This document shows, piece by piece, positions 12,217-15,476 of a DNA stretch of 64,000 nt. The notes below the pieces were generated by a model that had not been told where the DNA came from, made no database searches, and was given only the letters and a program-made list of their open reading frames with translations. The first letter of the stretch is position 1, and each line of letters starts with the position of its first letter. Position numbers and translations under genes: made by a program. Source of the DNA: an uncultured Phycisphaerales bacterium (GTDB taxonomy: Bacteria > Planctomycetota > Phycisphaerae > Sedimentisphaerales > Anaerobacaceae). The stretch covers positions 2,144,001 through 2,208,000 of the forward strand of contig OY970359.1 of assembly GCA_963718665.1 (NCBI GenBank), in the 5' to 3' direction.

Positions 12217-15057
12217 TTACTTTAATGTAACGGCGCAGCGTTCGCAGACATCGGGGTGTTGCGGGTTGCTGCCTACGCTTGACCAGTAGTTCCAGCAACG
12301 TTGGCATTTTTGATGTGTACTCTTTTGGGCAATTATCTGTCTTTCGCCATTGGTTTTTTCAAGCTTAATCTCACTAACAATGCAAAGGGCGGCGAAGGAT
12401 TTCAAGCCAAACTGCTCAATCGCGGCTGCATCTTCACTGCCGCAGCGGATAGTTACGCTGGATTCCTGATTGCTGCCGATAATCTTGTTTTGTCGCAATG
12501 GTTCAAGTGCTTTAAGGACCTCGTCTCTAAGAAACATAAGCTTTTGCCATTTCGGGTCTTCGACTTTGGGACTGGCTTTAGGCATCATCGCCAGATGAAT
12601 ACTATCAACATTTTGTGATTTGTGCTGGATTGCAGCCCAGGTTTCCTCAGCGGTGTGTACGAGAATCGGGGCGAACAATAGCGTGAGCGAATCGAGGATT
12701 TTGTAAAGCGCGGTCTGGCAGCTTCGGCGGGATGAGCTGTCTGCGGGGTCGCAATACAAGCGGTCCTTGAGCAGGTCCATATAGATACTGCTCATCTCGA
12801 TGCTGCAGAAATTATAGAGCAGCGAAAACGCGCGGTGATAGGCGAAATCATCGAATTCTTTGGTAACGCCGGCGATTAGCTTTTGGAGCTGCTGCATTGC
12901 CCATTTGTCGATTTCGAACATTTTGTCGTAAGCGACGGCGTTTTTAGCAGGGTCGAAATCGTAGATGTTGCCGAGGAGATAGCGCAGGGTGTTTCTGATT
13001 TTGCGGTAGGCATCCTGTGTTTTGCCGATGAGCTCATCGTTGCAGCGCATATCGTCTTGATAGTTGACGCTGGCGACCCAGAGGCGAAGGATGTCTGCGC
13101 CGTATTTGGTAACCTCGTCCTGCGCGTTGACGTAGTTGCCCAGCGACTTGGATTGCTTCATACCTTTTTCATCAACGGTGAAGCCGTGGGTGAGAACGGC
13201 CTTGAAGGGGGCTTTGCCCATAAAGCCCAGCGCGGGCAAAAGCGATAACTGGAACCAGCCGCGGTGCTGGTCGCTGCCTTCGAGATAGAGGTCAACGGGG
13301 ATGGGCCAGCCGGCTTTTGAGGCGACGGAGTACCAACTGCATCCCGATTCGAACCAGACGTCGAAGATGTTTTCTTCTTTTTTCAGTTCGTTAAATGAGA
13401 AGCCGGGAGGCAATTTGAAATCCGCGCCGAGGATTTGCTCAGGAGAATCGGTAAACCAGCTATCGGAACCTTTTGCAGCGATATGTTTTGAAACCGCCAA
13501 TACCGATTCTTTTGTCAAAAGTGTTTCGCCCTGAGGATTGACAAAGACCGGGATAGGCAGGCCCCAGCTTCGCTGTCTGCTGATGCACCAGTCGGGGCGA
13601 GATTCGAGCATACCTTCGATGCGTTTCTGACCCCAGTCGGGAATCCAGCGGACGTTTTTTGTGGATTCGAGGGAGAGGTTGCGCAGTGTTTTGCCCAGGC
13701 CGGGGATTTCCTTATCGACGCTGACGAACCATTGTTCGGTTGCGCGGAAGATGACGGGTGTTTTGCTTCGCCAGCAGTGGGGGTAGCTGTGTGTGATTTT
13801 CTGCTGTCTGACAAGCAAGCCGGTTTTAGTGAGGTGGTCGATGACTTCCTTATCGACCTTGAGGACGCTTTTGCCGCGGAGCCATTCGGGGACAGTGTTG
13901 TCGTAAGAGCCATCATCTTTCACCGGCGAATATATGGCCAGACCATACTTTTGCCCTGACATATAGTCCTCTGCGCCGTGGCCCGGGGCGGTGTGGACGA
14001 GGCCCGTGCCGTCTTCGGTTGTTACGTATTCAGCGAGTATAACCTTGTAGGCATCTTTATCAGTCGGGTTCTTTTCGATAAAGGGATGAGTATAGCGCAG
14101 GCCCTCGAGTTTGGAGCCGAGGACCTTATTTGGGTTGACTTTATATTGTCCTTCGTTTAATCCGGCAGCCGCGACGACAGCGGAGAGGCGGTCAGAAACT
14201 ACGATGGAGACGAAACGCCTGCCATTAAGCTGGTAGTCGAGAGTTACATATTCGAGACGCGGGTGCAGTGCGACAGCGAGATTTGCGGCTAACGTCCACG
14301 GTGTGGTCGTCCAAATCATAAAACAAACTTTGGCGTTCTGCGCCTGCTCTGCTGTTACCAGACCAAGTTCGGTTAATCGTGGGATGCTGTCTTTGGCAAC
14401 GGGAAAATTTACGAAGATGCTTGGTGAGTCGATATCTTTGTATTCCAGTTCCGCTTCTGCCAGTGCGGTTTCACAGCCGACGGACCAGTGAATAGGTTTC
14501 AATTGTTTTTTGACGAGACCTTTGCCTACGAGTTCAGCGAAGACCTCAAGGATACCTGCCTCGTAGGATGGCTTGAATGTGAGATACGGGTTTTCGAAGT
14601 CGCCGAATACGCCTAATTGCTGAAACTGCTGGCTCTGGAGCTTGACGTATTTGCTGGCGTATTTTTTGCAGAGCTGGCGAATTTCGGGTTTGCCCAGTTG
14701 GCGGACCTTTTCACCGAGTTCGGTAACGACCTTTGATTCGATGGGCAGGCCGTGGCAATCCCAGCCGGGGACGTAGGGGGCGTCGAAGCCGGACATTGTT
14801 TTGTAGCGGACGACGAAATCCTTGAGGACCTTGTTTATGACGTGGCCCATATGGATATCGCCGTTGGCATAAGGCGGCCCGTCGTGCAGGATGTATAACG
14901 GGGCGCTTTTTCGGGCGGCCCTGATTTTGCCGTAGATGTCGCTTTTTTGCCAGTCCTTGCGCATCTGCGGTTCTCGCTGGACGAGGTTTGCCTTCATCGC
15001 AAAACTCGTTTGCGGCAGGTTCAATGTTTGGCTGTAACTTTTCTTGTCGTCGGACAT
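12217..15057 (-). CDS. ileS: Isoleucine--tRNA ligase (type 1)
   Basis: LHDGPPYANG, HMGH, GWDCHGLPIE, WCISRQR, KQSKS, C-terminal zinc finger. Confidence 0.98.
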   Translation of the reverse strand: MSDDKKSYSQTLNLPQTSFAMKANLVQREPQMRKDWQKSDIYGKIRAARKSAPLYILHDGPPYANGDIHMGHVINKVLKDFVVRYKTMSGFDAPYVPGWDCHGLPIESKVVTELGEKVRQLGKPEIRQLCKKYASKYVKLQSQQFQQLGVFGDFENPYLTFKPSYEAGILEVFAELVGKGLVKKQLKPIHWSVGCETALAEAELEYKDIDSPSIFVNFPVAKDSIPRLTELGLVTAEQAQNAKVCFMIWTTTPWTLAANLAVALHPRLEYVTLDYQLNGRRFVSIVVSDRLSAVVAAAGLNEGQYKVNPNKVLGSKLEGLRYTHPFIEKNPTDKDAYKVILAEYVTTEDGTGLVHTAPGHGAEDYMSGQKYGLAIYSPVKDDGSYDNTVPEWLRGKSVLKVDKEVIDHLTKTGLLVRQQKITHSYPHCWRSKTPVIFRATEQWFVSVDKEIPGLGKTLRNLSLESTKNVRWIPDWGQKRIEGMLESRPDWCISRQRSWGLPIPVFVNPQGETLLTKESVLAVSKHIAAKGSDSWFTDSPEQILGADFKLPPGFSFNELKKEENIFDVWFESGCSWYSVASKAGWPIPVDLYLEGSDQHRGWFQLSLLPALGFMGKAPFKAVLTHGFTVDEKGMKQSKSLGNYVNAQDEVTKYGADILRLWVASVNYQDDMRCNDELIGKTQDAYRKIRNTLRYLLGNIYDFDPAKNAVAYDKMFEIDKWAMQQLQKLIAGVTKEFDDFAYHRAFSLLYNFCSIEMSSIYMDLLKDRLYCDPADSSSRRSCQTALYKILDSLTLLFAPILVHTAEETWAAIQHKSQNVDSIHLAMMPKASPKVEDPKWQKLMFLRDEVLKALEPLRQNKIIGSNQESSVTIRCGSEDAAAIEQFGLKSFAALCIVSEIKLEKTNGERQIIAQKSTHQKCQRCWNYWSSVGSNPQHPDVCERCAVTLK

Positions 15058-15085: not shown

Positions 15086-15114
15086 ATGCTAAATCGAACG
15101 CTTGTTAATGTCAA
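15086..15114 (-). promoter_or_regulatory. Possible proximal sigma70 promoter of ileS
   Basis: TTGACA-N17-TAGCAT on minus strand. Confidence 0.4.
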
Positions 15115-15120
15115 TGTTAG

Positions 15121-15147
15121 TAACCCCCCAATAAATTGGGGGGCTAA
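15121..15147. repeat. Short palindrome (REP-like)
   Basis: taacccccc-aataaatt-ggggggctaa inverted repeat. Confidence 0.5.
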
Positions 15148-15151
15148 ATTT

Positions 15152-15194
15152 AAACGAAAAAGGCCTTTCAGGATTGCCGCCCTGAAAGGCCTTT
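15152..15194 (-). terminator. Attenuator terminator in ileS leader
   Basis: AAAGGCCTTTCAGG-gcggcaat-CCTGAAAGGCCTTT followed by TTCGTTT on minus strand. Confidence 0.85.
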
Positions 15195-15215
15195 ATAAAT
15201 CGATATTTTACGCTT

Positions 15216-15323
15216 TCAGGACAGCTTTGTTATGTCTCCTATAATGATAATCGCAATGACAGCGGGGCACATAATGTGCTTTGCCTGTGCGATTAACCGT
15301 AATGTAGATTGTTTTAACGCCAT
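15216..15323 (-). CDS. Ile-rich leader peptide MALKQSTLRLIAQAKHIMCPAVIAIIIIGDITKLS (35 aa)
   Basis: AAGGTG SD-like site, 6 Ile in 9 codons near the end, stop codon lies in the antiterminator strand, upstream of ileS. Confidence 0.8.
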   Translation of the reverse strand: MALKQSTLRLIAQAKHIMCPAVIAIIIIGDITKLS

Positions 15324-15346
15324 AAATTCACCTTAACAACGTTACA

Positions 15347-15375
15347 AATCTACTATAGTAGTCGGTTATTGTCAA
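15347..15375 (-). promoter_or_regulatory. Putative sigma70 promoter of the ileS leader
   Basis: TTGACA-N17-TAGATT on minus strand. Confidence 0.6.
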
Positions 15376-15476
15376 TCGTAAGTTTAACGGCCATTGACAC
15401 AAGGCCGGTTCGCCTCTTATAGTATTCCCTTTATTAACCGTATTTATTTTAAGAAACGAACAACGAAAGGGCTATT

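Follow-up and report, generated by a model that had tools for sequence, protein, structure and literature searches.

Organization of the region upstream of ileS

The window, that is, the whole 64,000-nt stretch of contig OY970359.1 analysed here, carries on its minus strand an ileS gene whose product scores 914 bits against TIGR00392 (cut-off 621). The upstream region contains, in the direction of ileS transcription, the following features.

15359..15386, minus: candidate sigma28/WhiG-like motif TAAA-N16-ACCGACTA, overlapping the leader promoter (a regulator site is the alternative)
15347..15375, minus: distal sigma70-like promoter TTGACA-N17-TAGATT (TTGACA at 15375-15370, TAGATT at 15352-15347)
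15329..15334, minus: Shine-Dalgarno-like AAGGTG, 5 nt 5' of the leader ATG
15216..15323, minus: leader ORF of 35 codons, peptide MALKQSTLRLIAQAKHIMCPAVIAIIIIGDITKLS, stop codon TGA
15240..15257, minus: putative Ile control codons I23 and I25-I28 (ATT GCG ATT ATC ATT ATA)
15217..15241, minus: weak 1:2 hairpin (-3.4 kcal/mol), predicted by folding to be too weak against the antiterminator
15213..15225, minus: 5' strand of the predicted antiterminator (region 2), across the leader stop codon
15176..15188, minus: 3' strand of the predicted antiterminator (region 3), made of the upper 5' arm and loop of the terminator; loop-derived pairs covary
15159..15194, minus: intrinsic terminator hairpin (-23.4 kcal/mol)
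15152..15161, minus: U-tract
15121..15146, minus: REP-like palindrome between the terminator and the proximal promoter, outside the conserved element
15086..15114, minus: proximal sigma70-like promoter of ileS, likely for basal expression
12217..15057, minus: ileS, 946 aa (TIGR00392)

The leader peptide contains eight Ile in 35 codons, five of them at codons 23-28. The antiterminator pairs 15225-15213 with 15188-15176 over 13 bp, including two G-U pairs, and the terminator stem has 14 bp, or 15 counting the closing G-U. Promoter, Shine-Dalgarno word, Ile-rich ORF, stop-spanning antiterminator, terminator and U-tract are thus all present on the minus strand where the initial annotation had placed them. 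The leader fold has a z-score of -3.0, with 1 of 200 shuffled sequences equally stable. A first genome-wide scan for uORFs was too loose (519 candidates) and was superseded by a scan of 94 terminators in a 5' location, among which the stop-spanning antiterminator of the ileS leader, at -24.7 kcal/mol, is the strongest; the next one reaches -12.7 kcal/mol. Pattern searches gave five promoter-like sites versus 1.8 +/- 1.3 in shuffled sequences, and two terminators versus 1.9 +/- 1.4. Such counts are weak, and the case for the element therefore rests on its conservation.

Allowing up to 4 mismatches, the genome contains four copies of the REP-like palindrome (15146-15121), this one included, and most relatives lack it; other palindromic repeats occupy the same gap between terminator and proximal promoter at loci L009, L013, L022 and L038. 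Back to back with the leader promoter lies a strong divergent promoter-like site (15394-15423, plus strand) for a phosphomannomutase-like gene. Only some members of the genus share this arrangement; elsewhere among the relatives the neighbours differ.

Conservation of the isoleucine codons

A match to IleRS was obtained in 51 of 61 genomes, and 50 upstream regions were read. Eighteen of these, own included, display 5-6 Ile per 8 codons and a stop codon located 19-24 nt 5' of a terminator. The other 32 contain at most 2 Ile per 8 codons; in five of them (G022, G048, G057, G024 and G030) the leader is found farther upstream, past inserted genes. Among same-genus ileS loci, 10 of 22 (own included) have no leader in 700 nt, one of the ten having it farther up.

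At E ≤0.05, a first model, constructed from the 18 leaders with their Ile codons included, produced matches in 88 of 151 genomes from the order. The 70 best places (first set) comprised 45 leaders linked to ileS, 16 leaders of type B (described below), 4 of type C, 2 undetermined cases and 3 plain terminators that were removed. At least 4 Ile in 8 codons were counted in 41 of the 45 ileS-linked leaders, the remaining four having 2-3 Ile, versus none of the 16 type B and none of the 4 type C leaders. Since this model held Ile codons, a second one was built from the RNA core alone, from the last four codons through the U-tract. The Ile-free model matched in 105 of 151 genomes of the family. The best 80 of about 140 places, none of them used in model building, were sorted by downstream gene as a blind set: 47 have ileS within 5 kb, 18 have no ileS in at least 4.5 kb and 15 are on short contigs. 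In this set (best 80 of about 140), at least 4 Ile in 8 codons were present in 42/47 ileS-linked leaders, 0/18 leaders without ileS and 0/15 leaders on short contigs; the core model does keep the last four codons, which differ between leader types, and the genomes are kin, so that these counts and their Fisher value overstate independence. Among the five ileS-linked misses, one is cut by a contig end, one is a decayed copy and three have 2-3 Ile. Fourteen genomes hold both an ileS-linked match and a non-ileS or undetermined match. The conserved Ile-rich uORFs that the initial annotation had proposed to look for upstream of ileS in related genomes therefore exist, and their contrast with the other leaders is hard to explain except by selection for Ile codons before ileS.

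The decayed copy, L176, lies before ileS and has lost its Ile codons and its stop codon, the terminator being retained.

Counting back from the stop, codons -8 to -11 encode Ile in 33-39 of the 45 ileS leaders. The run draws on each of the three Ile codons (269/115/110), and its distance from the stop, be it 5, 7, 8 or 9 codons, always preserves the frame; the run is therefore not a simple (ATT)n repeat, a possibility that we ruled out. In 89/89 homologues, an in-frame ATG starts a reading frame that continues uninterrupted to the conserved stop (6 and 0 for the other two frames), and this ATG is preceded by a Shine-Dalgarno-like word in 45/89 (1 and 0 for the other two frames). Leader length varies from 16 to more than 50 codons, with only the Ile run and the last codons conserved. 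The N-terminus is conserved at the genus level. The leader peptides of L256 and L266 are nearly identical to that of the window.

The final Ile of the run is encoded by ATA in 22/42 ileS leaders, versus 33/235 for the other Ile codons. This last Ile codon belongs to an AGGAG/GAGGA word, after which a mini frame, M-K-L-P-stop, is often found in frame.

The Ile run, its frame, both stems and the spacing are preserved across three families (f1, f5 and f7). Five ileS genes from families f2 and f3, which are of a longer, divergent type, showed no Ile leader within 400 nt. A scan of contigs with the leader pattern yielded at least 120 loci, which overlap the other sets and are not counted separately; 80 titles refer mostly to Sedimentisphaerales, Anaerohalosphaeraceae, Phycisphaerae/Phycisphaerales, 'Pirellulales' and Planctomycetota, four of the 80 being other. 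Nothing was found on viral contigs with an IleRS N-terminus. Outside the order, the Ile-run type was seen in L328 only. This 3.4-kb contig, titled Candidatus Aegiribacteria, carries an Ile leader, a GNAT gene and ileS, and could reflect transfer or mis-binning.

Covariation of the two hairpins

Both hairpins were followed over 63 leader cores. The terminator is paired at 97.3%, with 92 both-side changes versus 24.8 in shuffled controls, and the antiterminator at 78.9%, with 69 both-side changes versus 29.6, slid controls being paired at 34-49%; the shuffle control ignores the relatedness of the sequences. The covarying stems expected in relatives are thus found for both hairpins. Part of the antiterminator covariation arises because region 2 repeats region 4. 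However, the antiterminator pairs that derive from the terminator loop also covary (column pair 9-61: GC 37, UA 12, AU 4), and such pairs are something that a plain terminator has no need of. The antiterminator is weaker toward its interior: column pair 15-55 is unpaired in 31/63 cores and column pair 18-52 in 26/63. Antiterminator and terminator share an arm and the loop, as had been proposed from the window, and their mutual exclusivity is kept by covariation.

The position of the duplex relative to the reading frame is also constrained. It crosses the stop codon in 45/45 ileS leaders and starts 11-21 nt past the last Ile codon in 38/41. Nine leaders have a run that ends at codon -5 rather than -8, and in these the duplex begins 3 nt later, at position -4 rather than -7.

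These data bear on the idea that the leader is a stand-alone small gene, encoding a hydrophobic peptide or an sRNA, that lies beside ileS by synteny only. Such a gene would fit the complete promoter, Shine-Dalgarno, ORF and terminator unit, the hydrophobic peptide and the genus-level conservation of its N-terminus. We nevertheless regard it as highly improbable: the length of the ORF is free apart from the Ile run and the last codons, bases of the terminator loop covary with the stop-codon region, and the peptide has no match in Pfam or NCBIfam, their leader-peptide families included.

A model for the switch

The alternative structures were modelled by an equilibrium calculation on RNA cut where the polymerase would sit on the U-tract, with the ribosome represented as a mask of an assumed 12-15 nt cover. 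For the leader of the window, the model gives antitermination when the A site is no farther along than codon 30 and termination from codon 32 onward. In homologues, the antiterminator forms in 40/45 with a ribosome on the last Ile codon and the terminator in 39/45 with a ribosome at the stop. Folding of both states, as the initial annotation had suggested, thus predicts read-through in the stall state and termination in the stop state. When no ribosome is present, the modelled antiterminator forms in the window and in 32/45 ileS homologues, and in 3/16 type B leaders. As the 1:2 hairpin amounts to only -3.4 kcal/mol, the antiterminator is predicted to form without a ribosome, and the OFF state to need a ribosome at the stop. 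On full-length RNA at equilibrium, the terminator wins in every ribosome state, implying that antitermination must be kinetic. A strong pause hairpin that would couple ribosome and polymerase was not found in the leader.

The proposed mechanism is as follows. The leader ORF would be translated, and a ribosome reaching the last four or five codons or the stop would cover region 2, allowing the terminator to form; the transcript would then be terminated near 15155. If the ribosome were held on Ile codons 23-28, presumably by a shortage of charged Ile-tRNA, region 2 would be free to capture the upper arm and loop of the terminator, and the antiterminated polymerase would read on into ileS or, in many relatives, into intervening GNAT or methyltransferase genes. 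Given the weakness of the 1:2 hairpin, read-through would also be expected from any other ribosome block before the last codons.

The attenuator reading of the initial annotation agrees with the conserved Ile run, its association with ileS, the covarying stems and the modelled ribosome geometry. We conclude that the element is very probably a ribosome-dependent leader-peptide attenuator sensing Ile-tRNA, upstream of ileS. Among contigs from RNA runs (shares <0.1), the sole coverage of a leader comes from a relative, in a single contig of 151 nt with a depth of 4.

Promoters of the leader and of ileS

The distal promoter-like site is present in 83/89 ileS leaders. A second promoter-like site past the terminator, which the initial annotation had raised as a caveat, is a real feature: it was recovered at 47/50 ileS loci, with a leader or not (shuffled rate 0.027), and at 41/47 ileS loci of the blind set (best 80 of about 140). 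Given this conservation, the leader is probably a booster on a basal level and not the sole source of ileS mRNA. In a shortage of charged Ile-tRNA, the attenuator would thus likely add ileS transcript to that from a likely basal promoter. Since ileS also has a promoter-like site to itself and the leader is missing from many relatives, the portion under regulation may be small.

The same observations would suit a working switch of little matter to ileS, a captured cassette whose read-through brings no benefit and behind which ileS is made from the proximal promoter. Besides the proximal site itself, this reading accommodates the recurrent lack of a leader among members of the genus (10/22 within 700 nt, one of the ten having it farther up), the decayed copy L176 and the REP-like hairpin inserted 3' of the terminator in the window. 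We judge it improbable, because the Ile run, frame, stems and spacing are kept in f1, f5 and f7 even where no passenger gene is present, which needs selection on read-through into ileS.

The leader promoter contains additional conserved words. The motif TTG-N6-RCCGR was found in 72/90 ileS leaders, 0/36 type B leaders and 2/17 others, and the TAAA columns are conserved at 78-100% in these 72 promoters, though they were not a selection criterion. The WhiG/FliA consensus is given as T(A/C)AA-N16-GCCGA(TAA) in the available part of PMC12871210, and the leader words TAAA-N16-RCCGA are in register with it. Spacing and words fit the sigma28 consensus, but the second word of the window reads ACCGACTA. 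The genome encodes a sigma factor of the FliA/WhiG family above cut-off; a flagellin was not found in it. Similar candidate sigma28-like sites are present in intergenic regions of the genome. The full composite motif occurs in 29/201 genomes (reversed control, 1). Seven matches were read: two are ileS leaders, two precede an ilvB-like gene and three precede other genes. These words could equally well be a regulator site or a sigma28 promoter. The two loci with an ilvB-like gene (L443 and L444) share a conserved 200-nt leader without an Rfam match.

Relation to known attenuators

The gene ileS is a textbook T-box gene. A T-box would presumably answer the same signal, uncharged or scarce tRNA-Ile, whereas here sensing would be performed by a ribosome on an ORF. 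The initial annotation was right to set the T-box aside: no T-box sequence or Rfam match was found at the locus or genome-wide, G000 (94.6% complete) giving no match to RF00230, which a control search did detect in 5/14 genomes. A search of the window region against all Rfam families (E ≤10) gave three unrelated sub-threshold matches only, and 16 homologous loci gave only tRNAs and one piece of a group II intron. This lineage without T-boxes thus likely solves the control of ileS with the ribosome instead.

The trp/ilv/pheST layout first assigned to the locus stands in part. The following features of the broad class of leader-peptide attenuators are present: an ORF followed by a terminator, a run of cognate codons, exclusive stems and, in the model, a fitting stall geometry. 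What does not stand is the four-segment trp/his/thr/ilv type, in which a stable 1:2 hairpin gives termination without translation: here this hairpin reaches only -3.4 kcal/mol and the equilibrium model predicts read-through without a ribosome. Very probably, as far as modelling goes, the element works like the pheST and ilv attenuators, within the broad class and outside both the four-segment type and the curated families.

In E. coli, pheST is controlled by a leader-peptide attenuator of a synthetase gene. Enterobacterial leaders terminate without translation, whereas the ileS leader is predicted to be ON in that state. With the trp, his, thr, leu and ilvGMEDA leaders of enterobacteria it shares the cognate run, a region 2 repeating region 4, exclusive 2:3 and 3:4 pairings and the U-tract. 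It departs from these and from the Corynebacterium ilvB leader by its weak 1:2 hairpin, by a region 2 placed across the stop codon and by sensing, as proposed, Ile alone. Partial accounts of the leuL attenuator (PMC5314783) and of the ilvB uORF attenuator of Corynebacterium (PMC11109978) served for comparison.

Parallels also exist among synthetase genes. Leader attenuators have been predicted for leuS and trpS in Streptomyces, and translational T-boxes for ileS in Actinobacteria (PMC1262725, available part); hisS paralogues of bacilli show a switch from T-box to leader peptide (PMC2965389, available part), and in Rhodobacterales a leader uORF, uORFC-8-2, precedes cysS (PMC8632094, available part). 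Together with pheST, these attenuators resemble the ileS leader in placing a uORF with cognate codons before a synthetase gene, those of leuS and trpS also in their terminator/antiterminator switch (PMC1262725, available part); as here, they replace the T-box of other phyla. The ileS leader differs in that ileS appears only with T-boxes in the available parts of those papers, and by its occurrence in Phycisphaerae, its second promoter-like site, its passenger genes and the lack of a sequence-family match. Table S0 of PMC2965389, in its available part, counts 58 premature terminators before ileS, 40 of which are T-boxes, and the portion of the supplement covering 32 of 116 places marks none of the ileS terminators as a leader peptide. 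Full-text literature searches, mostly outside subscription papers, returned no leader-peptide attenuator of ileS and none of any gene in Phycisphaerae. The 2010 survey by Lopatovskaya, said to be the broadest for synthetase attenuators, reportedly has a gene list without ileS. The mechanism is textbook; the ileS target and the Phycisphaerae lineage are apparently undescribed for leader-peptide attenuators.

Related leaders in front of other genes

The leaders without ileS use the same scaffold. Those of type B end in E-x-x-P-stop and stand before GNAT/methyltransferase arrays that contain no ileS (L090, L092, L094, L097, L100, L103, L106-L110, L112, L113, L115, L116, L120 and many of L191-L247). 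Their peptides have N-terminal words resembling N(R/K)Q-x-H-L-T and a K-E-x-x-P-stop end, and their arrays comprise GNAT, methyltransferase, EamA and aminotransferase genes, with glnA following in few cases. The type B signal is possibly ribosome-targeting stress. Ile makes up 47% of the hydrophobic stretch that precedes the stop in ileS leaders versus 14% in the others, where Val, Met, Leu and Phe are mixed. In the blind set (best 80 of about 140), ileS lies more than 400 nt away in 16/47 cases, with a GNAT or class I (SAM) methyltransferase gene between in 15/16; no gene intervenes in the other 31/47, nor in the window. Tandem leaders were observed upstream of ileS in L224/G030 and L203/G398, with methyltransferase genes between them.

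These relatives raise the possibility that the ileS leader is itself a general sensor of ribosome stalling, answering drugs or translation stress by way of uncoupling or of a nascent peptide that is hydrophobic, with the GNAT and methyltransferase genes as intended targets. The homologous leaders that lack an Ile run, likewise hydrophobic before the stop, precede just such genes and tRNA arrays, passengers of this kind occupy 15/16 distant-ileS loci of the blind set (best 80 of about 140), the model reads through without a ribosome in 32/45 homologues, and uORF sensors of multiple drugs are known, toiL being an example (PMC12121999, available part). Plain hydrophobicity, however, would not account for 47% versus 14% Ile nor track ileS as the Ile run does (42/47 versus 0/18, best 80 of about 140), and most ileS leaders of that set, like that of the window, have no intervening gene. 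As a full account we find this unlikely; it can hold in part together with the sensing of Ile-tRNA, which we prefer.

Sensors of antibiotic or translation stress built on uORFs include toiL, vmlR, cplR and whiB7 (PMC12121999, available part), and tRNA arrays are induced by ribosome-targeting drugs as a stress response, the accessible text of PMC8421152 making no mention of attenuation. The related leaders resemble these systems by their cargo, GNAT and methyltransferase genes and tRNA arrays being typical of translation-stress responses. No sequence relation to toiL, vmlR, cplR or whiB7 was found, and the ileS copy differs from them, as described there, by its cognate codon run. The leader family offers a first handle on the regulation of translation stress in Phycisphaerae, and the ileS leader was possibly retooled from a general sensor of such stress.

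Other genes are found behind the same scaffold. It precedes a GNAT gene and argJ at three loci (L205, L213 and L232; see also L207, L222, L223 and L239). At the argJ-type loci the leader has a Phe/Trp-rich stretch ending R(K/R)ML, a codon run that does not match arginine. In two genomes (L249 and L324), aromatic runs, FYFWFYF and FYFGYWFWFYY, stand directly before the gene for ADH synthase, an entry enzyme of aromatic amino-acid synthesis. These two leaders are candidate Phe/Tyr/Trp attenuators and would form a second cognate pairing on the scaffold. None of 31 further ADH synthase loci, G000 included, has an aromatic leader, indicating that this pairing is rare. Aromatic-rich leaders on the scaffold were also seen in another order of the class (L152 and L166).

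Outside the order, the core model matched in 4/7 genomes of one family in the class, 17/151 genomes in all, and across the phylum in 13/151 genomes, where most matches are plain terminators. In L370 and L372 an E-G-x-P end is kept and 10 and 7 tRNA genes, respectively, follow (L370:82-1331 and L372:1746-3015); further loci in other Planctomycetota include L375 and L381. In two records titled Acidobacteriota (L250 and L253), the scaffold lies beside a partial tRNA-like match. The literature searched yielded no tRNA array with an attenuator. No credible further copy of the scaffold exists in G000, where two weak matches are ordinary gene-end terminators.

The wider range of type B suggests that it is older. 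A tree of 108 leader cores (100 columns, unrooted, Ile codons included) leaves the deep forks unsettled and gives no direction; it neither shows nor rejects a single origin of the ileS type and cannot confirm that type B is older. Whether attenuators arise by convergence or by transfer is a question raised in the available part of PMC2965389. Paralogous leaders in the same genomes, with a common RNA switch, differing control codons and differing cargo, make the origin and change of specificity of leader-peptide attenuators directly testable. We tentatively propose, with slightly less credence than doubt, that one scaffold serves as a kit for amino-acid attenuators. An older, more widespread general stall sensor (E-x-x-P-stop, before GNAT/methyltransferase and tRNA arrays, in Planctomycetota and Acidobacteriota) would have given rise, in this order, to a copy before ileS that gained the Ile run and a dual sigma70/sigma28-like promoter. 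This copy would have become an Ile-tRNA sensor also answering IleRS inhibitors, often with detoxification-type passengers, and another copy would have gained an aromatic run before ADH synthase. If true, this would be a natural series in which a classical attenuator arises by a few codon swaps on a fixed switch.

Other genes of branched-chain amino-acid synthesis were also inspected in G000. cimA has no Ile leader, and ilvB and leuA have only loose leader candidates. Upstream of 1094122 on the minus strand of G000:C1 (L453), a short ORF ending in LIALALILRRQGA precedes a leuA-like gene with no obvious U-tract terminator, and is a possible Leu-sensing leader of another type. Upstream of 446478 on the minus strand of G000:C1 (L451), a short frame with the Val cluster GTC GTT GCT GTG GTG GTA has its stop abutting the start of ilvB, and is a possible Val-sensing uORF.
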